A stretch of 64,000 bases of DNA from Patescibacteria group bacterium (lineage in GTDB: Bacteria > Patescibacteriota > CPR2 > UBA1875), in the NCBI GenBank assembly GCA_041737595.1, contig JBGSRK010000009.1, positions 32,001 to 96,000 of the forward strand, given 5' to 3'. The stretch's first letter is position 1, and every line of letters begins with the position of its first letter. The translations under genes and the position numbers were made by a program. The notes beneath the pieces are model-generated. The model was not told the DNA's origin. It was given only the letters and a program-made list of their open reading frames with translations, and searched no databases. This document shows positions 7,400 through 48,447 of this stretch, piece by piece.

Positions 7400-7446
7400 T
7401 AAAGAAAGAGCCCGCACTTGCGAACTCCTTCGAGTACAGTGCGGAC
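7400..7446 (-). terminator. Terminator of GC-rich orphan gene
   Basis: Minus strand CCGCACT...ACTC-GAAG-GAGT...AGTGCGG then CTCTTTCTTT. Confidence 0.6.
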
Positions 7447-7454
7447 CATTTGGG

Positions 7455-7877
7455 TCAGTCAACAAAACGATGACCCCTTGTAGAATGAGACTGAGTTTCC
7501 CAGTCAACCCTTGGTCGAGATGAGGATCTTGAATCCCCAACTGCAGAGTCAAAGTGACTTTGCAGAATAAGAATCTCGATTTCTCCTGATCGAGAACGAA
7601 AAGCCTTGAACCGGACTCGATCTTTATCCTTGAGAAGCAGATCTCGAGCCTCTCCAATCCTTATCCCCTTATCATGAGGGTTGATTGTTCTTTGAACTCC
7701 TTCGGGGTCTGTTGGGCTTGAGATAACAGCTCGGAAGGTTCTCTTGTTCGAGGATACTAGTGCAATTCGCACATTGTCCTCAACCAGAAAACCTACTATC
7801 TTCCCTGGTTCCAACCTGATGGGCTGGTTCCCGAGAATGATAGAAACTGCTTTCCCCGGTCTCTTCTTCTTTGACAT
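7455..7877 (-). CDS. Hypothetical basic protein (GC-rich orphan)
   Basis: 140-aa ORF with GAGG SD, own TTGACA-17-TATCAT promoter overlapping truB 3' end, own terminator. Confidence 0.6.
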   Translation of the reverse strand: MSKKKRPGKAVSIILGNQPIRLEPGKIVGFLVEDNVRIALVSSNKRTFRAVISSPTDPEGVQRTINPHDKGIRIGEARDLLLKDKDRVRFKAFRSRSGEIEILILQSHFDSAVGDSRSSSRPRVDWETQSHSTRGHRFVD

Positions 7878-7932
7878 GTTATCCTCGATTCACTCGGGGT
7901 AGGTGCATTTGTATTGGAAGATGATAACATAT

Positions 7933-8619
7933 TTATAGTTTAGTGTCAATATTTTCTATATTTTTTGCCTTATTAATATCATATTCTCCGATTTTAGTTC
8001 GTCGTAATCCCGTAAGATAAGCACCACATTCAAGATCTTTACCAATATCTTCTGCGAGTGTACGAATATAGGTTCCACTAGAACATTTTACTTTTATTTT
8101 AAGTTCAGGATATTTATAATTAATTATTTTAATGTCATAAATTTTAATAATACGAGGTTCAATTTTAACTTCTTTGCCTTGTCGAGCAAGTTTATAGGCG
8201 CGTTCGCCATTAATTTTAATTGCAGAAAATGCTGGAGGAGTTTGTTTAATTTCCCCGATAAATTTTTTTAATACCTTCTCTATGTCATCCTGAGTGAAAC
8301 GAAGGATCTTTTTAGATTCTTCACTTTGTTCAGAATGACAAAAGGGGGTTATTTCTCCTTCTGGGTCACCAGTGTTAGAAATAAAACCGAGTTTTAATGT
8401 TGCTTCATATTCTTTATTAAGCTTCATAAAACTATCTTGATTTTTTGTGGCATCACCACAAAGTATTATAAGAAGACCAGTTGCAAAGGGATCTAGTGTG
8501 CCCGAATGACCAACTTTAACTTTTTTACCTTCATTTTTTGACAGTATCCCACGAATCTTTGCAACTACATCAAAACTAGTCCAACCAGCTGGCTTATCAA
8601 TTAAAATTATTTCGTTCAT
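7933..8619 (-). CDS. truB: tRNA pseudouridine(55) synthase
   Basis: DKPAGWTSFDVV, VGHSGTLDPFATG, PPAFSAIK, GTYIRTL. Confidence 0.96.
   Translation of the reverse strand: MNEIILIDKPAGWTSFDVVAKIRGILSKNEGKKVKVGHSGTLDPFATGLLIILCGDATKNQDSFMKLNKEYEATLKLGFISNTGDPEGEITPFCHSEQSEESKKILRFTQDDIEKVLKKFIGEIKQTPPAFSAIKINGERAYKLARQGKEVKIEPRIIKIYDIKIINYKYPELKIKVKCSSGTYIRTLAEDIGKDLECGAYLTGLRRTKIGEYDINKAKNIENIDTKL
8283..8340. repeat. REP-like palindromic element in frame within truB
   Basis: TGTCATCCTGAGTGAAACGAAGGATCT-TTTT-AGATTCTTCACTTTGTTCAGAATGACA; encodes CHSEQSEESKKILRFTQDD. Confidence 0.75.
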
Positions 8620-8678
8620 ATTTATATTATACCGTTATCCCCGCGAAAACAGGAATTTATTTGTTGTTCTAGATAAAA

Positions 8679-10151: not shown

Positions 10152-10307
10152 AAATTAAATTCCTATCATTAAAACCCATTCAGCCCTCTCAAAATTGAGT
10201 TGACTTAGCAGTATATATCCAAAGGGATTTGTAGTCAATAGTGTTTACAGATATTTAACAAAAATTTATTTACAAACTTTATCATTCATGCTAAACTTAC
10301 TTTCGTT

Positions 10308-14136: not shown

Positions 14137-15246
14137 TTAAAAATTAAGAATGCTCTCAGGGGTTTCTCCACCTTGGCTTTTTATTTTTATCCCAGATTCT
14201 TTAACTATTGTTCCACAAACCTTTACCTTAAATTTATATTTTTCGGCTATTTCTTTTATTTTTTTATCTTCTGGCGCGATAATAAGCATACCTTGCCCCA
14301 TATTCCAAGTTTGATAAGCCTCCTTATCAGATACTTCTCCCATCTTTTGCATCTCTAACATTAGATCACATGGAGCAAAAAGATTTGGTAAATCTGCTCC
14401 TAGCCCTGATGGTCTTAAAATCCTGCCAAGTTTTCCTGGCACCCCTCCGCCTGTTACATGAACGACTCCATGGATTTCGGTTTTTGGCTCTTTTGAAAAA
14501 CCACCAGTAAGTTCACAAATAAATTTTGAATATATTTTAGAAGGCTCAAGTATTTTTTCTGCCAAATCTTCTTTTTTATGCCATTCATTTCCATAAGCAT
14601 TTGATAATATCTTTCTGGCTAAAGAAAGTCCATTTGATCTGAAACCACTTTCTGAAAGAGCAATAACCTTGTCCCCCTCTTTTATTTCATGGCCAGTAAA
14701 CATACGATCCTTTCTGGCAAACCAAACTAGACCAGCCCCCCAATTATAATTAAAATCACCATAGCCAGAAACTCTTGAACCAAGTTCTGCAAGTTCTCCA
14801 TTAATAACTGCAACATTTGCTTCTTTTGCAGCTGCAACATAACCGACGGCTAAATCTTTAAGAAAATTTTTAAATTCAACCCCATTTTTTGAAAGACAAT
14901 TTACGTCAAGGATTGAACCAATTAATACAGGTTCACCACCTCTCACTACTGCATCATCACAAACCATCGCAAAAAGATCATATGCAATTGTGTCATGTTT
15001 TCCGATTCTCTCACCTATTTCCATTTTTGTCCCAACACCATCAAAGCCAAGACACATTAATGAACCTTTTGGGAGTTCGCTTACATCAACTACTCTTACT
15101 CCGCTAAAATCGTCAAATGGGCTTATTACTTCACCAATTTCACCTTTCCGGTTTTCCCAAGTCAATTTAGCAGCTTGAAATAATACTTTTGAAGCATCAT
15201 CGCCTAATTCAATATCAACACCGGCATCTTTATAAGAAATTCCCAT
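14137..15246 (-). CDS. purM: AIR synthetase
   Basis: YKDAGVD, DGVGTK, GELAE, SGFRSNG, HVTGGG, TWNMGQG. Confidence 0.92.
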   Translation of the reverse strand: MGISYKDAGVDIELGDDASKVLFQAAKLTWENRKGEIGEVISPFDDFSGVRVVDVSELPKGSLMCLGFDGVGTKMEIGERIGKHDTIAYDLFAMVCDDAVVRGGEPVLIGSILDVNCLSKNGVEFKNFLKDLAVGYVAAAKEANVAVINGELAELGSRVSGYGDFNYNWGAGLVWFARKDRMFTGHEIKEGDKVIALSESGFRSNGLSLARKILSNAYGNEWHKKEDLAEKILEPSKIYSKFICELTGGFSKEPKTEIHGVVHVTGGGVPGKLGRILRPSGLGADLPNLFAPCDLMLEMQKMGEVSDKEAYQTWNMGQGMLIIAPEDKKIKEIAEKYKFKVKVCGTIVKESGIKIKSQGGETPESILNF

Positions 15247-15247
15247 T

Positions 15248-16063
15248 TTAATCCTTTTGTTTAAAATAATTTACTGCGTTTTCAAAAATCATAAGAGCGG
15301 GTTCATAAATTTCACTTATTGCTATTTTTCTTCTTCTCGCTTGCTCTCTTTTTTCATAATAATCAGGATGAGAAAGAAATGAAATTGATCTTTCAGGGTG
15401 AGGCATCATTCCAAGAATATGGCCTGTTTCGTCACAAATACCAGCCACATCTTCTAATGCCCCGTTTGGGTTAAATGGAAACTCACCTTCTGCTAAGGTG
15501 CTATCTTCTTTCACATACCTAAATACGACTTGATCTGAGTCATTCATTTTACTCATCATTTTTTCATCGGCATAAAAATTACCCTCACCATGTGCAATTG
15601 GAATATTCATTTCTTTTATACCTTTTGTAAAAACACAAATATTTGATTCAACCCTTATCTTAACCCAACGGCATTCAAACCTAGCCTTCTGATTATGGAG
15701 AAGGGCAACCTGTTTTTCTCCATACCCACCATTGGCTGCAGGAAGTAACCCTAAATTAACTAGAATTTGGAAACCATTGCATATTCCAATTATCAGATTA
15801 CCTCTCTTAATAAAATCTTTAATCTCTGTAAATAGGTTATTTTTTATTTTATTCGCAAAAGCTTTTCCAGAACCAGTATCATCACCATAAGAGAAACCAC
15901 CCGGGAAAACAAGAATCTGAGCACTTTTTAACTTTGATTTATCTTCTGTTAAATCATTTATATGAACAATTTCTACATCTGCACCAACCTTATTAAATGC
16001 AAAAGCAGTCTCCTCGTCACAATTTATCCCATATCCGGTGATTACAATTACTTTTGGTTTCAT
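15248..16063 (-). CDS. purQ: FGAM synthase glutaminase subunit
   Basis: PGGFSYGD, GICNGFQ, AHGEG, NPNG, MMPHPER. Confidence 0.95.
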   Translation of the reverse strand: MKPKVIVITGYGINCDEETAFAFNKVGADVEIVHINDLTEDKSKLKSAQILVFPGGFSYGDDTGSGKAFANKIKNNLFTEIKDFIKRGNLIIGICNGFQILVNLGLLPAANGGYGEKQVALLHNQKARFECRWVKIRVESNICVFTKGIKEMNIPIAHGEGNFYADEKMMSKMNDSDQVVFRYVKEDSTLAEGEFPFNPNGALEDVAGICDETGHILGMMPHPERSISFLSHPDYYEKREQARRRKIAISEIYEPALMIFENAVNYFKQKD

Positions 16064-19000
16064 TTAATAGTCCTTTAATGTTTTATGATAATTATTTTGA
16101 AGATCATTTATTAATAAATTAATTATTTTTTCCCCATTACTATTTATTATAAATCGGTTATTATCTGAAACCTCGCCAATAAATGTAGCGTCCACTGAAA
16201 ACAATTTTTCAAATTCTTCTTTATTTTCCTTTGCTATACTTACTAAAAATCTACTCTGTGTTTCAGAAAATAAATATTGATCCTTTTTTATTGTTTTTTC
16301 ATCAGTATTTATATCTATTTTTACCCCTAAATTACTAGATATCGTACTTTTTGCAAGAGCTACCCCAATACCACCTCTCTCAATACTAATCGACGAAGCT
16401 AATAGCCCCCTTTTTATAGCAATGGTAACTTTTTGGTATCTTTCTTTTGCAACTTTGGCATCAACTTTTGGAGAAGTATTCCCAATCGCGCCGAGTAATT
16501 TATAATATTCACTTCCACCTAATTCATCCTTTGTTTCTCCAATAACATATATTAAATCACCAGGAGTTTTAAAAGCTATATCTATAGTTTCAGAAACATC
16601 ATCTATAACCCCTATTGAAGATATTAACAGAGTTGGCGGGACTGATATTTTTATTTTATTATCTGAATCATCTTCATACCCAACAAAATCATTAAACATA
16701 CTGTCTTTCCCGGAAATAAATGGTGTTTCAAAGGCAACTGAATAATCATAACAAGCCTTAACAGCTTCTTTTAGTTGACCTAATCTTTCTGGCTCATTTG
16801 AACTACACCAACAGAAATTATCTAAAAGAGCTAATTTATTAATATCACCACCGGCAGAAATTGCATTTCTTATAGCAGTATCAATTGTACAAGCAGCCAT
16901 GTGGTAAGTGTCTATTTCTGAAAGATTTGGGTATAAGGCTTGTGAAAGTACTACTCCTTTTTTTGAATCAAGCCTTGGTCTTGTTATTGTAGTTGTCGAA
17001 TTCACTCTACCTTTACCTTGAAGTGGTTTTAAAACCGAACCTCCTTGTACTTCATGATCATATTGGGTAGAGATAAATTCAAAAGAAGATATATTTAATG
17101 TCGAGAGTATATCACAAATTATTTTATCTAGATCTGTTGGGAATTTGTCTGGTTCTGGATTTATTTTTTTTTGATATGAAGATGTGAGAACTTTATCAGG
17201 GAGACCATCATGAAGAAAGTCCATACTAATATCCATAATTACATTATTATTGAATTTAACAATACATTTCCCGTTATTTTTAAATTCTCCTATAATTGTT
17301 GCTTCTACTCCTCTTTTTTTCATTAATATATCGAAAGAATTCCATTTTTCTTTTGGAACTGAAAGAGTCATTCTTTCTTGAGATTCAGAAATCCAAATTT
17401 CCCAAGGTTTAAGACCAGGATACTTTAATGGAACCTTTTCTAAATCAACAACACACCCACCACATTCTTTTGCCATTTCAGCTACCGAACAAGAAATCCC
17501 ACCTGCCCCGTTATCTGTAATACTTGTATATAAATCTAAATCTCTTGCTTCTTTTACAATTGCATCAGAAAGCTTTTTTTGTGTTATTGGATCTCCAATT
17601 TGGACTGCAGTTGCAGGACTCCCAGAATCCATTGCTTCAGATGAAAAAGTAGCACCATGGATACCATCTGCCCCAACCTTGCCGCCAATCATTACAATAT
17701 AATCACCAGACTGTGCTTGTTTTTTTGTACTATCTTTCCTATTTATTGTCCGAGGGATTAACCCAACCGTACCAACAAAAACTAGTGGCTTTCCTCGATA
17801 TTTTTCATCAAAGTAAATAAATCCCTGAGGACTAGGTATTCCAGAACAATTTCCACCGACATTAACCCCTGAAATTACACCTTCCATTATTTTCCTTGGG
17901 CTAAGCATTTTTTGAGTTTTATTTGACCCTTTATAAAGTTTTCTTTCGTCTCTTGGATCAGCAAAACAAAATCCATAACGATTAATAACTGGTTTTGCTC
18001 CCATACCAAACCCAATTGTGTCACGATTAACTCCGACTATCCCAGTAATTGCTCCTCCGAAAGGATCAAGAGCAGAAGGGGAATTATGTGTCTCAACCTT
18101 ATCTGTAATTAAATATTCATCGTCAAATATAATCCCACCAGAATTATCAACAAAAACTGAAACACAAATATCATTCTTCCCTTTTTTCTTTCTAATTTCC
18201 TGGGTAGCTTTTTTAATGTAATCTTTGTAAAGCCCCCCTTTAATTTCATCTAAAGAAGCAGCAAAAATAGTATGTTTACAATGTTCTGACCAGGTTTGTG
18301 CAAGAGATTCAATTTCAATATCGGTTGGTATGCGTTTTTCTTTATTAAAATATTTTTTAATTTCTTTTAGTGATTCAAGATCAAGTGCTAAGGGGCCCCT
18401 TCTTGAACCATCTTTGTTTAAAACACCCTCTTTTCCCAGTTTTGTAAGTTCTTCATCTGAAAGATCTAAAGAAACTAAATCAGTAGTTTGACCTAATTCA
18501 AGTTTGACTAAAGGAGTTGAGATACCCATACCATTGTTTTTGATATAATCATTCTTAGATAAAAGTTGGGCTCTTTGAATAAGTGGGTTATAAAGTGATT
18601 CAGAAATTTCTTTTTGTTTATCAATTTCACCACTTATAAGATATAAAAATGATGAATATACAGACTCCTCATTCTTAAAATCACAATTTATTGATTCCGA
18701 AATTTCCTCTTTAATAGTAGTTGCAATATTATCAGTTACTCCCGGTAAAAAACCTATTTCAATTGCAAAATCAAAGTTTTCTATACTAGTTGGCTCATCA
18801 ATTTTTATCTCTTCATTTACTGAATTAAGTAATAGATCGGTGATTTTTTTAAGCTCATTTTGGCTAAAATCTTTTGCTATAGTATAAACATTAATAATTT
18901 TTACATTAGATATTTTGAATCCAAGAGATTTTAAATCAGCAAGTAGTGTTTCAGACCTGCCATCATGAATTTTTGATTTTATTTCTACCCTGTGTCCCAT
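16064..19000 (-). CDS. purL: FGAM synthase synthetase subunit with N-terminal PurS-like region
   Basis: QTWSEHCKH, KVETHNSPS, DNGAGG, SESQERM, QYDHEVQ, FISGKDS. Confidence 0.95.
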   Translation of the reverse strand: MGHRVEIKSKIHDGRSETLLADLKSLGFKISNVKIINVYTIAKDFSQNELKKITDLLLNSVNEEIKIDEPTSIENFDFAIEIGFLPGVTDNIATTIKEEISESINCDFKNEESVYSSFLYLISGEIDKQKEISESLYNPLIQRAQLLSKNDYIKNNGMGISTPLVKLELGQTTDLVSLDLSDEELTKLGKEGVLNKDGSRRGPLALDLESLKEIKKYFNKEKRIPTDIEIESLAQTWSEHCKHTIFAASLDEIKGGLYKDYIKKATQEIRKKKGKNDICVSVFVDNSGGIIFDDEYLITDKVETHNSPSALDPFGGAITGIVGVNRDTIGFGMGAKPVINRYGFCFADPRDERKLYKGSNKTQKMLSPRKIMEGVISGVNVGGNCSGIPSPQGFIYFDEKYRGKPLVFVGTVGLIPRTINRKDSTKKQAQSGDYIVMIGGKVGADGIHGATFSSEAMDSGSPATAVQIGDPITQKKLSDAIVKEARDLDLYTSITDNGAGGISCSVAEMAKECGGCVVDLEKVPLKYPGLKPWEIWISESQERMTLSVPKEKWNSFDILMKKRGVEATIIGEFKNNGKCIVKFNNNVIMDISMDFLHDGLPDKVLTSSYQKKINPEPDKFPTDLDKIICDILSTLNISSFEFISTQYDHEVQGGSVLKPLQGKGRVNSTTTITRPRLDSKKGVVLSQALYPNLSEIDTYHMAACTIDTAIRNAISAGGDINKLALLDNFCWCSSNEPERLGQLKEAVKACYDYSVAFETPFISGKDSMFNDFVGYEDDSDNKIKISVPPTLLISSIGVIDDVSETIDIAFKTPGDLIYVIGETKDELGGSEYYKLLGAIGNTSPKVDAKVAKERYQKVTIAIKRGLLASSISIERGGIGVALAKSTISSNLGVKIDINTDEKTIKKDQYLFSETQSRFLVSIAKENKEEFEKLFSVDATFIGEVSDNNRFIINSNGEKIINLLINDLQNNYHKTLKDY

Positions 19001-19067: not shown

Positions 19068-19096
19068 TTTACAGCTTATGGTTCTGATGATAGAAT
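19068..19096 (+). promoter_or_regulatory. Sigma70 promoter of purC
   Basis: TTTACA-17bp-TAGAAT with TGn extension. Confidence 0.6.
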
Positions 19097-19167
19097 GTCT
19101 CCACGTGAATATAGGATATGGATCCGTACTCAGGTTCCTAAAAACCGAAAGGCAAGGTGAATATCTA

Positions 19168-20079
19168 ATGAACGAAGATAGGACTGGCTTTCAACCTGAT
19201 CATAGGGGGAAAGTCAGAGATATCTACGATCTTGGGGACAGACTTCTCCTAATCGCTACCGATCGAGCTTCGTCGTTTGATGTTGTTCTCCCTGGCACGA
19301 TTCCTGGGCGCGGGGTGATTCTCACCAAGATCTCGAAGTTCTGGCTTGAGGGTCCACTCGCAGATATCGTCCCTAACCACCTTCTGAGCACCAATATCCT
19401 CGATCTTCCAGCTGACTTCCTGATGCAGTTCACTTCTGATGAAGTGGACTATCTCGAAGGTAGAATCATGATCGCGAAAAAGGCCAAGGTTTTCCCTGTC
19501 GAATGTATTGTCAGGGGATATTTGGCCGGCTCAGGTCTCAAGGAGTACAACAATCAAGGGACCGTTTGCGGGATCGTTCTTCCTACTGGTTTGGTCAATT
19601 CCGACAAACTGCCGGAACCGATCTTTACTCCGTCAACCAAGGCCGAGGCAGGCTCCCACGACGAAAACATCACTTTTGGGCAGATGTGTCGCATTGTCGG
19701 CGAGTCAGTCGCAGTAGAACTCAAGCGGCTCTCTCTCGAACTCTACAACAGAGCGGCCGAACACGCTCTGGTACGAGGTGTCATCATTGCCGATACCAAG
19801 TTCGAGTTCGGAATCATCAACGACGAGATCATGTTGATCGACGAAGTTCTGACCCCTGACTCATCTCGGTTCTGGCCTCTCGATGAGTACGAGCCAGGTC
19901 GGGAGCAGAACAGCTTCGACAAGCAGATCCTGAGGAACTACCTTACGGGTCTCAAGAAGCAAGGTCTGTGGAATGGAGAAGCCCCTGGGCCTGTCATTTC
20001 TCAAGAGATCGTCGAACAGACTATCGCACGCTATCGCGAAGTCTACGGGAGAATCACCGGTCATACCTATATGGTCTGA
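19168..20079 (+). CDS. purC: SAICAR synthetase, Ade1-type; GC-rich
   Basis: GKVRDIY, ECIVRGYLAGS, FTPSTKA, ADTKFEFG, DEVLTPDSSRFW, DKQ; AAGGTG SD before ATG 19168. Confidence 0.95.
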   Translation: MNEDRTGFQPDHRGKVRDIYDLGDRLLLIATDRASSFDVVLPGTIPGRGVILTKISKFWLEGPLADIVPNHLLSTNILDLPADFLMQFTSDEVDYLEGRIMIAKKAKVFPVECIVRGYLAGSGLKEYNNQGTVCGIVLPTGLVNSDKLPEPIFTPSTKAEAGSHDENITFGQMCRIVGESVAVELKRLSLELYNRAAEHALVRGVIIADTKFEFGIINDEIMLIDEVLTPDSSRFWPLDEYEPGREQNSFDKQILRNYLTGLKKQGLWNGEAPGPVISQEIVEQTIARYREVYGRITGHTYMV

Positions 20080-20083
20080 CACC

Positions 20084-20140
20084 AACCCCTCAGAAGAAAG
20101 TGCTCCATGAAGGACCTCTCGCGCGAGGGGTTCTTTATTA
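20084..20140 (+). terminator. Long terminator hairpin after purC
   Basis: AACCCCTC...GAGGGGTT then CTTTATT. Confidence 0.6.
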
Positions 20141-35901: not shown

Positions 35902-36178
35902 AAACCAATAACGAACATTCAAATTATTAAAAACTTATATCTTGGTTACCAATTTATAATTTTTAAGGTTGAAAAATAATATAATGAGTTAGTTTATTTG
36001 TATTATTTGTAATTTTAGTTTAAAAGGAGAATTATTATATGACTAGATAAAAAATAATTTCTGAAATGTTTATTACTAACCAAAAGATTAAAATGGCTAT
36101 TTAATATATTATAGATTCTTATTGAATTTATTACGATTATGGCTTATTATTAATGAAATATTAAAAAAAGGAAAAATC

Positions 36179-38313: not shown

Positions 38314-38325
38314 GTTTGGTAGAAT
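38297..38325 (+). promoter_or_regulatory. Sigma70 promoter of hisS overlapping sulfatase 3' end
   Basis: TTGACA-17bp-TAGAAT. Confidence 0.7.
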
Positions 38326-38380
38326 ATGCCCTACGAAGGCTCAGTGGGCTTTCGGGCCCCTTAAAAAGGAGAAGATTTAG

Positions 38381-39682: not shown

Positions 39683-39715
39683 ATCAGTGGGGCGGCTTCG
39701 CCGCCCCACTGATCT
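39681..39715. terminator. Perfect 15-bp-stem hairpin after hisS
   Basis: AGATCAGTGGGGCGG-CTTCG-CCGCCCCACTGATCT; T tract weak. Confidence 0.65.
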
Positions 39716-39732
39716 CAATCTTTTAAACGAAA

Positions 39733-40368: not shown

Positions 40369-41047
40369 ATTGGATAATGTTATTTTTAATAGAGGCGGCA
40401 AAAGAATACTTGAAAATATCAACATTCATATCAAAAAATCTGAAGTTGTGAGCATACTTGGACCATCGGGGATAGGGAAAACTACTCTTGCAAAGATTAT
40501 GTCAGGTTTACTGAATCCTATTTCTGGTTCAGTATTTTTAGAGGGGAATATTCTGAAAACCCCTGTACCAACACTAGTATTATCTCACCAAGAATCAGAT
40601 TTGTTTGATTGGTTGACGGTTGAGGAAAATGTAGGGTTAGTAGGTGGCAAGAAAAACGCAGAAAAATGGCTTAATATATTTGGTCTGGTTGAATACCGTA
40701 ATAACTATCCAAAAACCCTCTCAGGTGGTATGAAAAAAAAAGTTTCACTAGCTAGAGCCGCAAGTGTAAATCCTTCTGTAATAATTTTAGACGAGCCGTT
40801 CTCTTCACTGGATGAAAAACAAAAAATAAAGTATTATAAAGAATTTAAAAATTTAGCAAATCAAGAAGGAGTTGCAATTATTGTTGTGACTCACGACATA
40901 AACGAAGCATATAATTTTTCAAACAGAATTATTTTTCTAGGTGGCAACCCTGCGACTATAATAGATGAAAAAATTCCGACCGGGGAAGAAAGTTCAAGTG
41001 AAAAAAGAGATTTAGTACTAAAAAATCTTGAGTCGATAGGAAAATGA
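40361..41047 (+). CDS. NitT/TauT ABC ATP-binding protein
   Basis: GPSGIGKT, LSGGMKK, LDEPFSSLD, VTHD. Confidence 0.92.
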   Translation: MLRLDNVIFNRGGKRILENINIHIKKSEVVSILGPSGIGKTTLAKIMSGLLNPISGSVFLEGNILKTPVPTLVLSHQESDLFDWLTVEENVGLVGGKKNAEKWLNIFGLVEYRNNYPKTLSGGMKKKVSLARAASVNPSVIILDEPFSSLDEKQKIKYYKEFKNLANQEGVAIIVVTHDINEAYNFSNRIIFLGGNPATIIDEKIPTGEESSSEKRDLVLKNLESIGK

Positions 41048-41050
41048 AAG

Positions 41051-42391
41051 ATGAAATATTTAAAAACCGTACTCCCGATGGAAATAAATGAAATCCCAAA
41101 GGCAGCTTCGCTTTTAATATCAAGAGCAAGAGATTTTGAAGTCTTACTATTTTCTGAGGCAGGGAGCTGGCCTATTAAATATATTTGGGAAAAGATGGCT
41201 GCAAAAGATAATAATTATAATAAAGTATTTTTTTCATCAAAAATTACTTCATTTTCAAAAAGTCCACTAGCTAATCAATTGTGTGGACTGCTAACAATTA
41301 CTGAAAGAAAATCAAAGCTTTCTCAAAAGAAAAAAAATAAGATTGCTACACTTTTAAATTCATTTAATGATGAATTTAAAGGTAAAATAACAAATCAGTT
41401 ACTTAATCAAAATGTAGAAAAAATTATACATTATATTTCTTCAATGGGGCTTATAATCCCTAGTGAAGAAGGGTTGATAAAACAAAATAAATGTTTTGAT
41501 AATAATATATCCACACTTAGTAAAAATTTTATTGATTTTAAAAAAAAATCAGTATCATACATTCTTTCTGATCTCCCAAATATTAAACATGAAGTTAGGC
41601 CTATACTGCAGATAATTTTATCAGATACTAAATTTGGTAAAGCAATAAAGTCACGAAAAGTTTATGTATTTGATGAGATAATAAGTCGTGGGAGGACTAT
41701 CAATTCTATAGAAGTGATTATAAATTCATTTTCATCCACAACGGATTGGGTTATGGGAGTTGTCTATTGCCCAAAGTTTTATGTTGGAAGTAAAATTGAT
41801 TTTGTTTATAGCGATAAAAAGGCATTACCTACGTCAAATCGACCAGATATGATTGGAGAAGTGACTTATGAGACTGTATTTGCTTTTGAAACTAAATCAC
41901 TTACGAATATTTTGCCTAATACAAGAGTAAAAAATGAAGACGATATAAGTATTTATAACAGTGAAATTGCAAAGTTTAATAGTCGATATTTCCCAAAGCT
42001 TAAAATGTTAAATAAGACATCTTTTCGAGCTCTTTTAAACTTATACTTTATGGCTGACGATAAGGATATATTTGAAAAGTGCCTTCATCTTAATTTAGTT
42101 GAATCAGTAAGCCTTTTAGAAGAAATCGCTTTTTATATAACAATGCCATTTCCACTTTCAGATATTATAAAACGAAATAAGTTTAAAAAAGAATCACGGC
42201 AAGTATTAAAAAAATTAGAATGCTCAATAACTAATTCTGATTTTTCTGATAACCTTAACAAGCTAAAAATAAAGTACTATGCTATTAGAAGTATAATTAT
42301 TAAGAGTGAAATAGCTTCCTGGATAAAAACAAATACTAAAGTAATAAGGGAGTTAGACTTAGTACTGGAGGAGGTTTTTAATGGAAAATAG
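41051..42391 (+). CDS. Hypothetical protein with type I PRTase-like PRPP-binding loop
   Basis: KVYVFDEIISRGRTI resembles hhhhDDhhxxGxT. Confidence 0.5.
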   Translation: MKYLKTVLPMEINEIPKAASLLISRARDFEVLLFSEAGSWPIKYIWEKMAAKDNNYNKVFFSSKITSFSKSPLANQLCGLLTITERKSKLSQKKKNKIATLLNSFNDEFKGKITNQLLNQNVEKIIHYISSMGLIIPSEEGLIKQNKCFDNNISTLSKNFIDFKKKSVSYILSDLPNIKHEVRPILQIILSDTKFGKAIKSRKVYVFDEIISRGRTINSIEVIINSFSSTTDWVMGVVYCPKFYVGSKIDFVYSDKKALPTSNRPDMIGEVTYETVFAFETKSLTNILPNTRVKNEDDISIYNSEIAKFNSRYFPKLKMLNKTSFRALLNLYFMADDKDIFEKCLHLNLVESVSLLEEIAFYITMPFPLSDIIKRNKFKKESRQVLKKLECSITNSDFSDNLNKLKIKYYAIRSIIIKSEIASWIKTNTKVIRELDLVLEEVFNGK

Positions 42392-43778
42392 CTATAAACA
42401 TATTATTCTTATTTCTATTGATACTTTACGAGCAGACTGTATTACTGCAGTCGAAACTAGTGATTTTATAAAAAAATATGGTCCAAAAAATTTTTCTACA
42501 AAATCACTAAATAATATTGTGAAAAAAGGTACTTTTTTCACAAACTGTATCTCGGCAGCACCATATACAACAGCTTCACATGCAGCCTATTTTACTGGTT
42601 GTTGGCCTAAAAATAACGGAGTTTATGAATTCTTTAACCAAAAATTAAAGAAACCTACTATATTTGAATTTGCAAAAAATAACCAATATAGAACTATATT
42701 TCAAACTGACTTTCCTATTATTCTAGGTGAAACACTTGGGTTTACTAAGGATGTTGATGATTATTTTATTGAGGATGAAATATCAGCTTTTGACAAATTA
42801 AAAAATTCAACAAAAAAAACTGTTTCTTTTTTCCATTTTGGTGGTGTTCATTATCCATATGGGTTTCATAAACTAAAGTTTGCTGGAAAGGATTATATCC
42901 ATAAAGTTGAAAGTCTAGAAAAAGAATTATCCGTTAGTAGTAAAGACAAATTAGACGATATATTAGTAGAAAGCTATTATAATAACAAAGATAGAGAGCT
43001 ACTTTCCAGATATAAAAGGATAGTCGACAAACTTTACAGAGAAAAAAAATATAATCGACTGAAGAATCTATATATTGAGGGAATAGATTATTTTATGGAA
43101 AATCGGTTCAATAGCTTTATAAAAAAAATAGTTGATTTTACCGACAGCACTGGTAGTTTACTAGTTATCTTTGCTGACCATGGGGAAGAATGGGATGATT
43201 TATCGCGCGGACATGCAAATTCCATCTCTGACACTGTTCTTCGAGTCCCTCTTATATTCTATGGGAAGGGTATCCCAAAAGGCGTAATAAATGATAGTTT
43301 AGTTAGAACAATCGATCTTCTCCCTACTATTTCGAATTTATTTAACATAGAAACCCCTCAATTAGATGGCGTAGCCATGAAATTTACAAAAGAAAAGAAA
43401 AATACAAACAATATGGCAATTTCTCAGGTTTGGAGATTAGGAGATAAGGATAAAATAGCAAAACACCAACAAATGATGATTAACAAAGAAAAGGTGGCGC
43501 CCCTACAGACTCTCTTAGAAAAAGAATCAATATATTTCAAAAATGTAGCATTTAAAAGAATATACAACAAAGAAGGAACAACTATTTCTGAAAAAACATA
43601 TTATAATAATGGAAAACAACTTATAAATTCAGTTGATACACAAAATGAAGAGTTAATAATAATGAAAAATCTACTTGAGAAATATAATTCAAAAGGATTT
43701 CGAAAAGTTGAGGCGGCAATTAGTTTACCTAAAAGACTTATTAAAGAGCTTCGCATGCAGGGCTATAAAATAAAATAA
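42381..43778 (+). CDS. Second sulfatase-fold enzyme, Thr at nucleophile position
   Basis: ISIDTLRAD, PYTTASHAAYFTG, HYPY, ADHGE, GHAN, DLLPT, C-terminal LRMQGY. Confidence 0.88.
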   Translation: MENSYKHIILISIDTLRADCITAVETSDFIKKYGPKNFSTKSLNNIVKKGTFFTNCISAAPYTTASHAAYFTGCWPKNNGVYEFFNQKLKKPTIFEFAKNNQYRTIFQTDFPIILGETLGFTKDVDDYFIEDEISAFDKLKNSTKKTVSFFHFGGVHYPYGFHKLKFAGKDYIHKVESLEKELSVSSKDKLDDILVESYYNNKDRELLSRYKRIVDKLYREKKYNRLKNLYIEGIDYFMENRFNSFIKKIVDFTDSTGSLLVIFADHGEEWDDLSRGHANSISDTVLRVPLIFYGKGIPKGVINDSLVRTIDLLPTISNLFNIETPQLDGVAMKFTKEKKNTNNMAISQVWRLGDKDKIAKHQQMMINKEKVAPLQTLLEKESIYFKNVAFKRIYNKEGTTISEKTYYNNGKQLINSVDTQNEELIIMKNLLEKYNSKGFRKVEAAISLPKRLIKELRMQGYKIK

Positions 43779-43789
43779 AGGAGAATATT

Positions 43790-45076
43790 TTGCCTAAATA
43801 TAAAACAATTAAACCTCCCAGAGGAATGCATGATCAATTTGAAGAAGATTTATTAAAAATTGAATCAGTTATTTCTATAGCATCTGAGATTGCTAGATCA
43901 TACGGATTTAAAAGAATAGAAACCCCCACTATTGAGTCAATCGAAGTTTTCACAAATACTGGAGATAAGACGATTGATAAATGTTTTACATTTATGGATA
44001 AATCAAACCGCGAGATGATATTGAGACCAGATATAAATGCTCCAATCAGCCGCGCTATAGTAAATCATAGCTCATCTCAACCACTACCTCAAAAAATATT
44101 TTTCCATGGCAGCGTTTTCAGATATAGAAAATCATACCGACGTGAGTTTATTATGTTTGGGGTAGAGACATATGGGATTGCTGAGCCTATTGCAGACGCC
44201 GAAATACTTCGAGTAGTGGTTGATTTGATTAAAAGACTGGGTTTTAAAAAATATACGATTGAATATAGTAATCTTTCAATATTTAGTAGGTTGATTAAAT
44301 TTTTATCAAAGACAGACAAAGTTAATGTTAATGTAGAAGAGCTAATATATAAGCTTAGATTTCATAATAAAAAAGAGCAAAAAAGTATTTTAAATAAAAT
44401 AGGTTTCCAAAAAAAATCAGAAGAGCTAATCATGGATTTTCTATCTTGCCCAGAGGTGAATAAAAACAGCTTTAATTTACTTAAAAAGGTAGCGGCTATG
44501 GATAAGTCTATAGAAATTGAAGCTCTGTCTGTTCTGAATTTCCGAGATGAACTCTTAAAACAACAGTTATCAAATTGTATTTTTAAAATTTCAAATCTAC
44601 ATGGTGAATCATTTTACTCTGGTCTTACATATCGTTTATATTTATCAACAGAAATGGGAGATGGGGGAAGATATGACAATTTTACTCTTTTACTAGGGGG
44701 TTTATATATTCCAGCTACTGGGTTAGGTTTTGGTATTAGTAGATTAATTAGACTAGCAGAAGCAGAAAGTATATTAATCCCAATAAAAACAAACATAAAA
44801 TATTTAGTTCGAATAGTAAGAGGCTCTGAAGAAACTGTACGACCTTATCTGAGATTACTTAGGAAACAAAATATTATTGTCAACGAAATCCCTGAAGACT
44901 ATAAAGATGATCGGTTGATGCCATTTGCAATCAAAGGTGGTTATCACCGTATCTTTGTTATAAAAAGTTTTAACAAAATAAGTGGACTTTATGAAGTTTG
45001 GTCAATAAATATAGTTGATGGAACTAATAAAAAATTTTCTACATATGGTCTAAAAGATATATTTAATTGCTCATAA
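43790..45076 (+). CDS. Divergent HisRS paralog (HisRS/HisZ-like)
   Basis: PRGMHD, IETPTIE, LRPDIN, FRY..RREF, GGRYD, GFGISR; His-pocket motifs altered. Confidence 0.8.
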   Translation: MPKYKTIKPPRGMHDQFEEDLLKIESVISIASEIARSYGFKRIETPTIESIEVFTNTGDKTIDKCFTFMDKSNREMILRPDINAPISRAIVNHSSSQPLPQKIFFHGSVFRYRKSYRREFIMFGVETYGIAEPIADAEILRVVVDLIKRLGFKKYTIEYSNLSIFSRLIKFLSKTDKVNVNVEELIYKLRFHNKKEQKSILNKIGFQKKSEELIMDFLSCPEVNKNSFNLLKKVAAMDKSIEIEALSVLNFRDELLKQQLSNCIFKISNLHGESFYSGLTYRLYLSTEMGDGGRYDNFTLLLGGLYIPATGLGFGISRLIRLAEAESILIPIKTNIKYLVRIVRGSEETVRPYLRLLRKQNIIVNEIPEDYKDDRLMPFAIKGGYHRIFVIKSFNKISGLYEVWSINIVDGTNKKFSTYGLKDIFNCS

Positions 45077-45253
45077 TATTAAAATGTGAAGACAAACCAG
45101 GTAATATTATATTTAGATCTTTTCCCCAAATTACAAACTTAGGCGATGCGAGTAACGCAGTGACTATCCAGAAAGATATAGAAATGAGATAAATAAAACA
45201 TTATAAAAAGGGATAGTCTTTATGTTTCTTATATTTTTTAAGTATTAAAGGAA

Positions 45254-45283
45254 AGAAGCCACACCCCGCTGGGGTATGGCTTC
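45254..45283 (-). terminator. Terminator after purB
   Basis: Minus strand GAAGCCATACCCC-AGC-GGGGTGTGGCTTC-TTTCCTTT. Confidence 0.65.
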
Positions 45284-45306
45284 AATTCCGTTGTGTCTTA
45301 TTCGAT

Positions 45307-46713
45307 CTAGATGGTCAGTGAGCCAAGAATTTCGGTCCACTGGCCGACAATGCGCTCGGTCGACTCAATCGAGAGACCAATATAGTTATGCGCCGGATCC
45401 TTGATAGTCGCAAGTTCAGAAGCGTTGAAAGTGTTGATATAGGTACGAAGCTTCTGACTTTGAAGTGCGAGGTCCTGGACCGAGACCCCTGTCTCTTTCG
45501 ACTCGAGAGTCAAAAGACGAACAGCTTCATGCGCATCCGGATGACCGTGTTTGGCCAAAAGAATGTAGAGCTGCTCACCACATGAACCCTTTCTCATCTC
45601 GAGGTTGCGTTCCATGTTGCCAGTGTGAACCTGAAGCTTCTTCATCGTTTTTGTGATTTTGGTCACGACGATGTAGAGATAGCCCAGAATCTCACCATAA
45701 GTACGGCCGGATGCTGAGTTAGTTAGGTCACGTTGGTGCTCACAGATCTGATCAAGCTGGACCGTAACCCAGCGACCAACCAGAACCTTGTAGAGTGACT
45801 CCGCGTTTTCGAAGTTGATCGGGTTCTGCTTGTCGGGCATCGTTGATGACCCGACCTGACCAGCTTCGAAAAATTCACCGACTTCGGCAATTTCTGTACG
45901 CTGCAGGTTCCGCATATCGCGTGAGAGTCCGGCAAGGAGTCCGGCGGTCTGTACGACCTCAAACAGTAGGTACTGAAGCGGTTCAGGTGGTGCGATCTGA
46001 GTTGAGATCGGCGCCGGGTTGACACCAAGTCGGCCAAGCACAAGACGCTCGAACTCACGAGGATCATCCACTAGAAGCGAGCTGGCATTGTACGCTCCAA
46101 CTGCTCCAGAGAACTTCCCAACCAGACCGTTTTTGGCCTGGCAGAGTTTAAGAATCTTCTGACCAAGGGCGTCGACGTACTTTGAGATGGCATTGCCAAA
46201 GGTGATCGGAACGGCGTGTTGGCCGTGGGTTCGACCTACCTGAAGCTGAGCCTTCTCCCGGAGAGCAAGATCGATTAGGACCTTCTCGAGCTCGATCAGA
46301 GCCGGAAGAAGGACCTGTTCAGTCACTGCCTTGTAGCGCGCCACGTTGGCAGTATCGATAATGTCGTACGAAGTGGCAGCAAGGTGGACGAATGGACGGG
46401 CTTCTGGACTTACTCGAGCCTGAATGCAGTTGACGACCGCTCGGATGTCATGCCGTGTCAGATCTTCCTCCTTGTACACCTCATCGGTCGTGATCTGCTT
46501 GCAAGCCTCAGTGACCTCATCAAGGACATCAGACGAACAAAGGCCAAGCTCTGCAAGAGTGGCAACAAGCGCACACTCTGCCTCGAGCTTGTAATCCGTG
46601 AAAGCATTCTCGGACAGGAACGGTACGAGCGGAATCACATCCTTCGCGTAACGAGTATCGATAGGAGCAATCCCATCCCAACGGTCATAAGTGACTTTTT
46701 CAGTAGGCTCCAT
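45307..46713 (-). CDS. purB: Adenylosuccinate lyase; GC-rich (start probably ATG 46713)
   Basis: RHD, TSYDI, GRTHGQHA, GAVG, GSSTMPDKQNP, HQRDLTNS. Confidence 0.93.
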   Translation of the reverse strand: MEPTEKVTYDRWDGIAPIDTRYAKDVIPLVPFLSENAFTDYKLEAECALVATLAELGLCSSDVLDEVTEACKQITTDEVYKEEDLTRHDIRAVVNCIQARVSPEARPFVHLAATSYDIIDTANVARYKAVTEQVLLPALIELEKVLIDLALREKAQLQVGRTHGQHAVPITFGNAISKYVDALGQKILKLCQAKNGLVGKFSGAVGAYNASSLLVDDPREFERLVLGRLGVNPAPISTQIAPPEPLQYLLFEVVQTAGLLAGLSRDMRNLQRTEIAEVGEFFEAGQVGSSTMPDKQNPINFENAESLYKVLVGRWVTVQLDQICEHQRDLTNSASGRTYGEILGYLYIVVTKITKTMKKLQVHTGNMERNLEMRKGSCGEQLYILLAKHGHPDAHEAVRLLTLESKETGVSVQDLALQSQKLRTYINTFNASELATIKDPAHNYIGLSIESTERIVGQWTEILGSLTI

Positions 46714-46881
46714 GGCGATTATCTTCTCCTTTTTCAAAGGGCTGGACACAACGAGAATGTCGCTATTTTACTACCAAATAAGGGAAAGGTAAACGTGCTT
46801 TATATCCTAAATGTTCAAAAAACTTTATTTTTTTAAATCGATTTTAGTAAAAATAAAAAAATAGATAAAAAACATGAATTA

Positions 46882-46910
46882 TTTACAGTAAACGATTGTT
46901 ATGTTAATAT
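46882..46910 (+). promoter_or_regulatory. Sigma70 promoter of purE-purC2
   Basis: TTTACA-17bp-TAATAT with TGn extension. Confidence 0.6.
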
Positions 46911-46984
46911 ACCCGCACGTGTAAGAAAGACAAACGTCAAGATCTACAGTTTCCTTCAATAGAGAGGTAAGGTGAAAAGGCTCT

Positions 46985-47533
46985 ATGGCTGCAAACGTAC
47001 CGCTTCTTAGTACCAAATGGCCCAACAAAGAGGCATATGTCGCGATTGTGCTCGGTAGCAAGAATGATTACAGCAAGATCGAAAAGTTGATCGAGATGAT
47101 GGAGAAGTTCTCTATCCCCTACGTCATCGTCGTCATCTCGGCACACCGCAACAAGCAAAAACTCGACGAGTTCATCCAAGGATTATCTGCCACAAACGTT
47201 CGCTTTGTCGTAGCTGTCGCCGGTATGGCAGCAGCACTAGGTGGCGCAATTGCCGCGGAGACCTGTCTTCCAGTATTTGGCATCCCACTACCATCACCGA
47301 ATGACCCCGATGGTATTGGTGCCAAATTCGCAACCAATGAGTTGCCTCCAGGCATCGCACAAGTAGCAGTTCTGGCGGACAATGTCTCAGACAACAGCAC
47401 ACGAATCGTGAACTTGATTGCTCGAACTCTTGCGATCCTTGACCCCAACTATAAGGGGTTGAAAGAGTTCATGGCAAGTGCATCCGTCGAGAAGCCACCA
47501 GTCATTCCGTATGTTCCAAAGGAGGCGAGCTAG
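46985..47533 (+). CDS. purE: PurE-family AIR carboxylase/mutase; GC-rich
   Basis: GSKND, SAHR, AGMAAALGG, PVFGIP, LPPGI. Confidence 0.85.
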   Translation: MAANVPLLSTKWPNKEAYVAIVLGSKNDYSKIEKLIEMMEKFSIPYVIVVISAHRNKQKLDEFIQGLSATNVRFVVAVAGMAAALGGAIAAETCLPVFGIPLPSPNDPDGIGAKFATNELPPGIAQVAVLADNVSDNSTRIVNLIARTLAILDPNYKGLKEFMASASVEKPPVIPYVPKEAS

Positions 47534-48388
47534 ATGGCTCACAGAAGAGAAATCAACCGTGGCAAGACTAAGACGATCTACGAAGGCACCAAACTCGGAA
47601 CTGTCCACGTTGTCAGTCGTGACGACATAACCGCTGGCGATGGCCAGCGTAAAGATCTGATCCCGGGCAAGGGCCATCTTTCGACCGTCACTACCGCGAA
47701 CATGTTCATGCTTCTTGCCGCACACGGCATCCCTACCCACTTCATGAGCATGATCAATGGGAATACGTTCAAAGCGAAGCAAGTCGACATGATCCCGCTC
47801 GAATGTGTCGCTCGGAGACTCGCTGTCGGTTCGTTCCTTGATCGTCAGCCCTCGTTCAAATCCGATCCTCCTCACCGCTTCGAGGCGATTGTTACCGAGC
47901 TCTTCTACAAGAGCGACGCAGACAACGACCCGATCGTCGTTCCTCAGAGCAACGGTGAGCTCTGGATTCACGATGCACACAAGCCGATTACAGACGCAAC
48001 CCACAAGGGTATGCTTTCACCGGTGGCGTATCATGTCCCACCGGAGAGCTACAACGGCACTCAACTCGAACTCATCGAACAACTGCTCAAGATCACCGAA
48101 CGAGTCTTTGAGATCCTTGAGCAGGCCTGGCGACAAATGGCGAACGCTAATCTCGTTGATCTCAAGATCGAATTTGGGGTGACGAGTGATGGCGAGCTCA
48201 TAGTTGCCGACGTTATCGATGCAGATTCATGGCGTCTCTGGCCAGACGGCGACCCGAACCAGGCATGGGACAAGGACTACTACCGTCAGCATGCCGATGC
48301 TTCTCGCATTGAAGCTACTCTTCACAAGTACAATGAAGTAGCCAAGGCGAGTAACGTTGTTGCCACTTACCGAGACATGACATCCTAA
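47534..48388 (+). CDS. purC: Second SAICAR synthetase, PAICS-like type; GC-rich
   Basis: GKTKTIY, DITAGDG, LECVARR, DLKIEFG, ADVIDADSWRLWP, DKDYYR. Confidence 0.9.
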   Translation: MAHRREINRGKTKTIYEGTKLGTVHVVSRDDITAGDGQRKDLIPGKGHLSTVTTANMFMLLAAHGIPTHFMSMINGNTFKAKQVDMIPLECVARRLAVGSFLDRQPSFKSDPPHRFEAIVTELFYKSDADNDPIVVPQSNGELWIHDAHKPITDATHKGMLSPVAYHVPPESYNGTQLELIEQLLKITERVFEILEQAWRQMANANLVDLKIEFGVTSDGELIVADVIDADSWRLWPDGDPNQAWDKDYYRQHADASRIEATLHKYNEVAKASNVVATYRDMTS

Positions 48389-48447
48389 CCCCCTTAAGGG
48401 GAGAAAGAACCTGAAGGTTCCCTCTCTCTGAGAGGGGGCCTTTATTT
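48389..48447 (+). terminator. Long terminator hairpin after purC2
   Basis: CCCCCT...AACC-TGAA-GGTT...AGGGGG then CCTTTATTT. Confidence 0.6.

Follow-up and report, generated by a model that had tools for sequence, protein, structure and literature searches.

Probable horizontal transfer of complete small GC-rich transcription units into an AT-rich Patescibacteria genome

We analysed a 64,000-nucleotide stretch of an AT-rich Patescibacteria group bacterium (the window, equivalent to positions 32001-96000 of contig C67 in the genome called G000 here) in which five gene-sized segments switch abruptly to a high guanine-plus-cytosine (GC) content. They hold a 140-amino-acid (aa) open reading frame (ORF) without a family, referred to below as the ORFan, and the genes purC, hisS, purB, and purE-purC2. 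The five segments were likely acquired by horizontal gene transfer, each as a complete small transcription unit, and a single GC-rich lineage was probably the donor. This reading is directly supported by foreign composition, by xenologue status or patchy distribution of the genes, by a site that is empty in relatives, by junctions that are real, and by expression signals suited to the genome's own ribosome. So understood, the case is ordinary horizontal gene transfer in an unusually clean form and needs no new mechanism.

Five GC-rich units in the window

The assembly measures 1.09 Mb in 143 contigs, and the bin is rated 96.9% complete with 3.5% contamination. The genome is thus small (about 1 Mb), and the sequencing runs that carry the stretch, both from one study, are labelled hot springs metagenome (X1) and biofilm metagenome (X2). 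Two-state segmentation by GC content gave five protein-coding segments of 0.48-0.52 GC against a background of 0.312, in agreement with an initial annotation that had distinguished the same five by eye. The gene names it had proposed (purC, hisS, purB, purE, and a second purC) were backed by Pfam and NCBIfam, and the 140-aa ORF matched no family in either collection. The predicted units and their parts, with promoters written as -35 hexamer, spacing, and -10 hexamer, are as follows.

7404..7949, minus strand: ORFan unit, GC 0.48, promoter matching 11/12 consensus positions, hairpin terminator; two-state segment 7408-7906 (GC 0.481)
7949-7921, minus strand: ORFan promoter, TTGACA-17-TATCAT, with the -35 hexamer within the final truB codons
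7877-7455, minus strand: 140-aa ORF of the ORFan unit, leader with GAGGA, terminator at 7431-7404
19068..20138, plus strand: purC unit, promoter 19068-19096 (TTTACA-17-TAGAAT), terminator 20107-20138; two-state segment 19181-20130 (GC 0.522)
19168-20079, plus strand: purC coding sequence, 303 aa, phosphoribosylaminoimidazole-succinocarboxamide (SAICAR) synthetase, leader of about 66 nt with AAGGTGAA
38297..39715, plus strand: hisS unit, promoter 38297-38325 (TTGACA-17-TAGAAT), 16-pair hairpin at 39681-39715; two-state segment 38328-39711 (GC 0.520)
38381-39682, plus strand: hisS coding sequence, 433 aa, GC-rich leader of about 50 nt
45255..46793, minus strand: purB unit, promoter 46793-46765 (TTTACC-17-TAAAAT), terminator 45283-45255; two-state segment 45258-46763 (GC 0.524)
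46713-45307, minus strand: purB coding sequence, 468 aa, adenylosuccinate lyase type, leader of about 50 nt
46882..48438, plus strand: purE-purC2 unit, promoter 46882-46910 (TTTACA-17-TAATAT), terminator 48420-48438; two-state segment 46912-48440 (GC 0.519)
46985-47533, plus strand: purE, leader with AAGGTGAA
47534-48388, plus strand: purC2, second SAICAR synthetase, following purE

The purB and purE-purC2 units are divergent and separated by an AT-rich spacer of 148 bp (46764-46911). GC content at third codon positions (GC3) was 0.56-0.61 in the purC, hisS, purB, and purE-purC2 genes and 0.40 in the ORFan, compared with a native mean of 0.19. As had been noted at first, the edges of the five units are free of transposase and integrase genes; the flanking ORFs are ordinary genes or family-less.

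A GC-rich class across the genome

The pattern is more general than the five segments initially described and constitutes a genome-wide class of about 23 units. AT-rich contigs contained 78 GC islands totalling 74.9 kb, tRNA and rRNA genes among them. When codon-position GC was computed for ORFs of at least 150 aa, 499 had a GC3 below 0.28 (mean 0.19, the native class), 47 fell into a "mid" class of 0.28-0.47, and 22 reached 0.47 or more. Mean GC at the first, second, and third codon positions was 0.57/0.39/0.57 in the 22 high-class genes and 0.44/0.33/0.19 in the 499 native genes, and the high-class proteins used less K, N, and I and more A, R, and G. A GC3 cut-off of 0.44 defined 23 single-orientation, protein-coding GC-rich units; the ORFan unit is not in this set because its GC3 of 0.40 lies under the cut-off.

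Outside the window, the high-GC class includes thyX-like, tmk, and dcd genes in one block, fabK with a paralogue, dnaG, a phosphatase-family gene, and many ORFs without a family. Several of these are duplicated or patchily distributed. Compared with the full-length dnaG of each relative searched, the GC-rich dnaG product was 35-44% identical, and the genome has a second, AT-rich dnaG at C67:117876-119543. The dcd gene was found in 0/4 genomes of the family and fabK in 0/5 genomes searched; one further GC-rich ORFan was found in 0/5 genomes searched and another in 1/5, at 37% identity.

Two dnaG-rpoD loci were seen (C108:186919-189857 and C67:117876-120359), both by contig ends, with DnaG proteins 39% identical to each other. 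The C108 locus is the GC-richer one (GC3 of 0.49 for dnaG and 0.38 for rpoD, compared with 0.21 for dnaG on C67). Between fusA and tuf (C54:58900-59720, locus L067) lies a 0.6-kb island of 0.51 GC with a 106-aa ORF that has one predicted membrane helix and a CxxC-x8-10-CxxC-x4-5-H motif. The fusA-tuf gaps of G003 and G004 (1.0-1.4 kb) hold ORFs with the same motif, and in G003 also a helix, with otherwise no detectable similarity.

Reality of the junctions

The abrupt changes in composition could in principle result from misassembly, with reads of a GC-richer organism joined into an AT-rich contig; the bin does consist of 143 contigs, many of them small and of 0.5-0.68 GC, and carries 3.5% contamination. 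However, in an independent assembly of run X1, a single Logan contig (14,580 nt) spans 37001-48831, and with it three units, showing 0 differences; the junctions at 45258, 46912, and 48440 are bridged by contigs from run X2, again with 0 differences. X2 contigs left 39503-39919 uncovered, and run X3 yielded next to nothing; neither counted as evidence. This comparison used assembled contigs rather than reads, and X1 may be the source sample. In addition, every unit is seated between native genes with predicted working signals on both sides, and -35 hexamers overlap the stop regions of native genes. The junctions are therefore real rather than an assembly artefact, contrary to the chimera that had been named at the outset as the finding that would overturn the pattern, and we consider misjoining extremely improbable.

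The hisS unit

One case for foreign ancestry comes from hisS. Its product scored 360.5 bits with TIGR00442 (cut-off, 286.75) and 54 bits with HGTP_anticodon, and an AT-rich native histidyl-tRNA synthetase (HisRS) on contig C137, at 459 bits, also exceeded the hisS equivalog cut-off of 286.75. The native enzyme is 75% identical to that of G002, from the same family, and 52-57% identical to those of six more relatives of the same order or class. By comparison, the GC-rich hisS product shares 26-33% identity with the HisRS of relatives, and its best match among 5.8 billion proteins reached 47%. In a quick maximum-likelihood tree of 50 rows, from which four mis-extracted relative rows had been dropped beforehand, the native copy was sister to G002 (support, 99) within the relatives' clade (98), while the GC-rich copy fell in another deep clade (99), across two long branches, among database sequences. 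Named members of that clade were mostly Patescibacteria. No viral relatives of hisS were found. The GC-rich hisS is thus a xenologue and a second HisRS, predicted to be redundant with the native enzyme. Of the per-gene phylogenies that the initial annotation had proposed, hisS supplies the one tree available, with the GC-rich copy outside the relatives' clade.

The hisS unit lies between a sulfatase and an ABC permease of one gene string (window positions 36122-41047). The order of this transporter string is binding protein, sulfatase, hisS, permease, and ATPase, so that it looks split by the hisS unit. The permease starts 18 nt behind the hisS terminator; its transcription would therefore need read-through or an unseen promoter. 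No orthologue of this permease was found in the class, with matches of only 25-26% in three genomes.

A third HisRS-family gene lies nearby. It is AT-rich, has no anticodon-binding domain, and scored 190 bits with TIGR00442, under the hisS cut-off; it was under the hisZ cut-off as well.

43790..45076, plus strand: AT-rich HisRS-like paralogue, Pfam tRNA-synt_His only, left neighbour of the purB unit

The purine genes

Most of the remaining units carry purine genes. The purC product scored 384 bits with NF010568 (cut-off, 251) and was 52% identical to that of G017, 50% to that of G006, and 34% to that of G007. The purC2 product passed Pfam SAICAR_synt (175 bits; cut-off, 20) and stayed under TIGR00081 (123 versus 190 bits); it is predicted to be a second, divergent SAICAR synthetase. 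Similarly, purE, of the N5-CAIR mutase/AIR carboxylase type, passed Pfam AIRC (99 bits; cut-off, 30) and fell under TIGR01162 (91.8 versus 149.6 bits). The purB product passed Pfam Lyase_1 and ASL_C and reached 274.4 bits with TIGR00928, under the cut-off of 326.2. Its closest named homologues are labelled adenylosuccinate lyase or lyase family protein by their sources, and the product probably works like PurB.

The distribution of these genes is patchy. The best purB homologues among 5.8 billion proteins were 52-59% identical, the 59% match extending over 87% of the query and the next best reaching 57%; those named by their sources were Patescibacteria. The nearest purB loci among species-representative genomes (55-56% identity) include four Patescibacteria contigs of 0.54-0.58 GC, and proteins of this purB type, at 46-53% identity, are found in DPANN archaea and Halanaerobiales as well. 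Within the class, the purB protein was found in 2/32 genomes, G000 counted, and the SAICAR_synt family in 6/32, with 0/4 in the family. A phage vector for purB was considered and rejected, since the best viral relatives reached no more than 30% identity.

AT-rich purine genes adjoin the GC-rich purC and are divergent from it.

14137..19000, minus strand: native-composition purine genes by Pfam, namely an AIRS-family ORF (purM-like), purQ, and a fused purS-purL

The native-composition purQ shares 65% identity, and purL 61%, with its counterpart in G007, from the same order, in contrast to the 34% between G007 purC and the GC-rich purC. As judged from gene content, purE, purC, and purB would complete the encoded steps from formylglycinamide ribonucleotide to aminoimidazole carboxamide ribonucleotide, extending a partial native-composition segment (purLQS and the purM-like gene). 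No match to purD (PF01071) or purH (PF01808) was found in the 96.9%-complete G000.

The ORFan unit

The ORFan unit provides an empty-site comparison. DHH, truB, UDG, and RNase J genes are syntenic in the family, and the truB-UDG spacer measures 62-95 bp in G002, G001, and G003; in G000, the 0.5-kb ORFan unit occupies it. In G004 (contig C10, locus L064), the same spacer holds a different insert of about 0.8 kb with an ORF of about 260 aa and a native GC of 0.37. The truB-UDG spacer may be a preferred insertion point.

6702..7399, minus strand: native UDG gene, Pfam UDG, own promoter 7399-7371 (TTGACA-17-TATACT)
7933..8619, minus strand: native truB, GC3 0.17, 62-72% identity in four family relatives

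The -35 hexamer at the end of truB corresponds in position to the -35 of the UDG promoter in relatives, and the -10 and leader that now precede UDG are those of the family, with a leader motif common to G000, G001, G003, and G004. The ORFan unit thus lies between two promoter copies that share TATTGACA.

The ORFan itself has no recognizable relatives: homologues were found neither in a word-index search nor among 1.84 billion representative proteins, and the ESM Atlas gave no usable match. Its transcript folds better than shuffled sequences (z, -3.8). A known RNA was considered, and Rfam at E values up to 1 gave chance-level matches only. From its sequence, the unit could be either protein coding or an RNA; only the ORFan and the ORF-less islands described below could be RNA.

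Signals at the unit borders

Each unit carries predicted expression signals of the kind expected of a bacterial gene. Matches to the promoter consensus were 11/12 for hisS and the ORFan, both with a TG extension, 10/12 for purC, and 9/12 for purB and purE. Dinucleotide shuffling of these AT-rich regions gave similar numbers of sites at the 9/12 level (53 found versus 41.4 expected, and 57 versus 57.9), so that the strength of the purB and purE promoters is about chance level. The position of the promoters at the GC boundary, unlike their strength, is not due to chance. Between the end of the -10 hexamer and the boundary lie 3 nt for hisS, 2 nt for purB, 2 nt for purE, 15 nt for the ORFan, and 85 nt for purC. 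Genome-wide, 10/23 GC-rich units have a promoter ending between -10 and +25 nt of the boundary, compared with 7.8% of 3000 random AT-rich positions. In 8 of these 10 units the -10 ends 0-6 nt from the GC-rich part (0-2 nt in 7 units), and the units therefore look like complete donor transcription units rather than promoterless RNA copies.

These results bear on several statements of the initial annotation. All the promoter strings it quoted are present, but its description of them as near-consensus does not extend to purB and purE. Its placement of the GC shift near the predicted start site applies to four units (2-15 nt after the -10) but not to purC (85 nt), and the genome-wide comparison of GC changepoints with promoters that it recommended bears out the association. 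The -35 hexamers of the ORFan and hisS promoters do begin in the last codons of truB (IDTKL*) and the sulfatase (IDKNA*), respectively, and the shift does end at a hairpin, since predicted terminators close all five units.

Few predicted terminators in their regions are stronger than these. A hairpin of -20 kcal/mol or lower lies downstream of 59% of GC-rich genes versus 7% of native genes. Likewise, a Shine-Dalgarno motif precedes 20/22 GC-rich genes versus 223/499 native genes. One 14-mer ribosome-binding stretch occurs in the whole genome only before hisS and purB, and AAGGTGAA occurs upstream of purC, purE, fabK, and one further GC-rich ORF, compared with 0/499 native genes. The Shine-Dalgarno sequences of the units are complementary to the 3' end of the genome's own 16S rRNA (GATCACCTCCTTTCT). 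A CACGTG motif was also seen a few bases past the -10 in both purC (19100-19112) and purE (46913-46925); this motif may be a shared operator of the imported purine genes.

Two of the alternatives first put forward can be weighed on these signals. Genes tuned for a host cell or another expression system would account for the composition contrast, which is the single observation in their favour. However, sigma-70-type promoters, Shine-Dalgarno sequences matching the cell's own 16S rRNA, and intrinsic terminators contradict such tuning; moreover, the products are ordinary cytosolic enzymes, and no secretion or eukaryote-type signals were seen. We assign this explanation next to no probability. 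Alternatively, own or foreign mRNAs may have been reverse transcribed and inserted as DNA copies of whole transcripts. The units do span about start site to terminator, and the genome does encode reverse transcriptases (RVT_1 at C36:101557-102636 and a 50% identical copy at C54:388-1425). Yet the reverse transcriptase on C36 adjoins a repeat pair rather than the units, and neither A-tails nor consistent target duplications were seen. A transcript copy would arrive without a promoter; the -10 within 0-2 nt in 7 units is better explained by co-transfer of the promoter than by repeated chance landing. In addition, the foreign amino-acid make-up would be explained no better than by plain DNA transfer. 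Insertion of transcript copies is thus highly improbable, and the original suggestion that whole transcripts or cassettes had been captured stands insofar as foreign DNA appears to have been acquired as single expression units, but nothing points to transcript capture, and the units share no cassette ends.

Origin of the units

Each unit would have been taken up whole, with a sigma-70-type promoter or at least its -10, a long Shine-Dalgarno leader, a coding sequence, and a GC-rich hairpin terminator, and would now sit in a spacer between native genes of a genome that has drifted to 31% GC. About 23 units would most likely have arrived by many separate insertions from one GC-rich donor lineage, recently enough that native AT mutation pressure has not eroded their third codon positions. 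Uptake might have occurred, for example, by transformation followed by illegitimate or microhomology joining. Two things would place the composition switch at the promoter: donor and recipient both have AT-rich promoters and spacers, and a streamlined genome retains no more of imported DNA than its functional part. The single donor lineage, the recency of transfer, the uptake route, and actual expression of the units are what we infer from the observations above.

Oligonucleotide usage speaks to the number of donors. The window GC-rich genes and the GC-rich genes of other contigs had a tetranucleotide correlation of 0.86, comparable to that of native genes with native genes (0.84). Correlations with native genes were 0.19 and -0.01 for the window set and 0.37 and 0.20 for the other-contig set, and unrelated GC-matched loci gave a mean of 0.48 (standard deviation, 0.19; maximum, 0.88). 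Given this shared signature of the approximately 23 units, together with their strong Shine-Dalgarno and terminator signals, one donor lineage is the most likely source. The GC-rich small contigs of the bin were considered as the donor and rejected; tblastn of the GC-rich proteins found no second copies there. A repeated mobile element was rejected as well, since all-against-all blastn of the 78 islands gave only tRNA-like matches and one contig-end overlap.

A different explanation is that the units, whatever the source of their genes, are kept GC-rich in place between start site and terminator, either through a mutation bias coupled to transcription or through selection, e.g., for stable or structured mRNA in a hot spring. 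Several observations are compatible with such a regime: the GC shift 0-6 nt after the -10 in 8/23 units, together with a boundary promoter in 10/23 versus 7.8% at random; the one signature across units (0.86); the lack of a close donor; the folding of the ORFan transcript (z, -3.8); and the small GC-rich gene in the fusA-tuf gap, a position at which relatives likewise have a small CxxC gene. However, EF-Tu, EF-G, rpoB, and a 1278-aa ORF adjoining rpoB, presumably rpoC, have a GC3 of 0.15-0.18, so that the native genes with the highest expression are AT-rich at third positions. The shift also affects the first and second codon positions (GC1 of 0.57 versus 0.44) and amino-acid use, the genes duplicate native ones or were not found in the relatives searched, and the ORFan site is empty in three relatives. 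We know of no mechanism for a GC regime of this kind. Retention of an ancestral GC content was likewise rejected, since the GC3 of family orthologues (0.27-0.41) is lower than that of the units (0.57). The high GC of the units is therefore neither expression driven nor an ancestral relic. In-place maintenance, which includes the transcription-linked regime that the initial annotation had offered, is accordingly very unlikely.

Several points nevertheless weigh against horizontal transfer of complete units from one donor. No close donor was found, the best matches among 5.8 billion proteins being 47-59% identical (hisS and purB); this is odd for recent, unameliorated transfers unless the donor lineage is unsampled. 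The terminal branch of the GC-rich hisS is long (0.92). The signature match of 0.86 falls inside the control range (maximum, 0.88), and one unrelated locus, L119, reaches 0.77-0.80. Absences in relatives rest on metagenome-assembled genomes that are 64-100% complete. No vehicle was found at the five sites, that is, no integrase, no repeated ends, and no close viral relative. Since the -35 hexamers of two units lie in the last codons of native genes, at least that hexamer is recipient DNA. The purB/purE spacer has a GC content of about 0.2 (counted by eye), and both promoters lie inside the imported block; it is more AT-rich than the spacers of GC-richer relatives, whose GC of 0.30-0.49 is 10-17 points lower than that of their genes. 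The promoters may therefore consist of native DNA, or of DNA that has ameliorated ahead of the third positions. Finally, the fusA-tuf CxxC gene shares its position with relatives, so that high GC is not always tied to a new insertion site; the gene fits replacement via conserved flanks and leaves some room for an in-place regime.

A more specific version of horizontal transfer would derive the approximately 23 units from one dedicated, previously undescribed import route and a single partner, with joining at promoter hexamers and the TTGACA and -10 consensus serving as microhomology. If true, genes would arrive already under, or become fused to, a working promoter. Such a route would explain the 0-2 nt fit of the -10 in 7 units and the -35 hexamers in native stop regions. 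It would also explain why the units share one signature and why TATTGACA occurs on both sides of the ORFan unit. AAAATG flanks hisS on both sides (by eye), and an 8-nt TATTGACA copy, which also equals the -35 consensus, flanks the ORFan unit on each side; these repeats are not above chance in AT-rich DNA and are a lead only. We consider this version unlikely.

Biological significance

Host-dependent bacteria with small genomes are generally regarded as scavengers of nucleotides that cannot synthesize their own. In G000, one such genome, single nucleotide-metabolism genes appear to have been imported (purC, purE, and purB and, elsewhere, thyX-like, tmk, and dcd), and the imports also cover fatty-acid reduction (fabK) and spare copies of core genes (hisS and dnaG). 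Because the sharp composition contrast shows each import to the base, the genome is a convenient natural case for studying how foreign genes gain promoters, how fast they ameliorate, and whether one neighbour supplies most imports.

Comparison with known systems

Full-text literature searches listed no description of a GC-rich pattern of whole expression units. The concept of compositionally atypical transferred genes that ameliorate gradually is reportedly due to Lawrence and Ochman. The units resemble such genes in their foreign GC, codon, and amino-acid use, their patchy distribution, their phylogenetic incongruence, and a graded series of GC3 from 0.57 down to the native 0.19 (the 47 "mid" genes). 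They differ in that transfer would run from GC-richer donors into an AT-rich genome, in that single genes or pairs are trimmed to one transcription unit, with about 23 sharing one signature, and in that the five sites have no integrase, tRNA, or repeats.

Xenologous second aminoacyl-tRNA synthetases are known in bacteria, for example as extra copies tied to inhibitor resistance. The GC-rich hisS is similar in encoding a full-length HisRS of a distant subtype besides the native one, both being over the cut-off of 286.75 (360 and 459 bits); it differs in the presence of a third, truncated HisRS-like gene 4 kb away. Integron gene cassettes are likewise gene-sized units that end in an imperfect hairpin. 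In contrast to cassettes, the units have their own promoters, are scattered rather than arrayed, and end in hairpins followed by T-runs as in terminators; the island ends also share no recombination site (intI was not searched for).

Klein, Misulovin, and Eddy are said to have shown in 2002 that GC-rich islands mark structured RNA genes in AT-rich thermophiles. In G000, tRNA and rRNA genes also form GC islands, and the runs are labelled as hot springs and biofilm metagenomes; however, all of the five units except the ORFan unit are protein genes that match families strongly and have a coding-type GC3. Unlike a classical genomic island or mobile element, the five units have no integrase, transposase, or repeat family, and their neighbours are ordinary or family-less.

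One locus of the latter kind does occur in the genome. Beside a tRNA-Ala gene, C36:90973-105563 (locus L054) encodes a type IV coupling protein, a relaxase-like gene, a VirB4-like ATPase, Fic, and a large serine recombinase, and it is predicted to be an integrative conjugative or mobilisable element. It is alike in being a second, classical route of gene import in the same genome, but it is a multi-gene block with a GC3 of mostly 0.38-0.46 (one ORF, 0.72) and its own mobility genes, of which the five units have none. Related serine recombinases were seen at C108:110655-111932 and C80:11566-12486.

Additional GC-rich features

Segmentation of the window also returned two high-GC segments absent from the initial annotation.

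53556-53931: additional high-GC segment, two tRNA-Met
62025-62324: additional high-GC segment, no ORF and no Rfam match

The second of these (300 nt, 0.53 GC) lies between two plus-strand genes and has a strong hairpin at its start, just past the upstream gene. Compared with shuffled sequences, its folding is stronger on the minus strand (z, -4.9) than on the plus strand (z, -3.0), making it a candidate structured RNA.

Elsewhere in the genome, GC islands of 0.6-3.7 kb with short ORFs or none were seen at C71:45611-49297, C71:37517-38319, C71:3694-4337, and C54:55823-57036. An Rfam scan of 20 loci gave no match for three of these four (C71:37517-38319 lay outside the scan). One of the four is flanked by rpsJ and the ribosomal-protein genes that come next. 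The chaperonin family PF00118 (GroEL) had no match in the 96.9%-complete G000. Many small contigs of 2.5-13 kb (e.g., C127, C5, C93, C34, and C105) have 0.58-0.68 GC and a GC3 of up to 0.95 and are probably contamination of the bin.

Within the C36 element, at C36:99960-102636 (loci L024 and L054), the ORF with a GC3 of 0.72 has its C-terminal 48 residues repeated (71% identity) about 350 nt downstream, followed by RVT_1. This layout of ORF, repeat, and reverse transcriptase is that of a putative diversity-generating retroelement. A second such ORF with a repeat, with a GC3 of 0.78, lies at a contig end (C21:93-1459), and the 50% identical reverse transcriptase (C54:388-1425) lies at the end of another contig.

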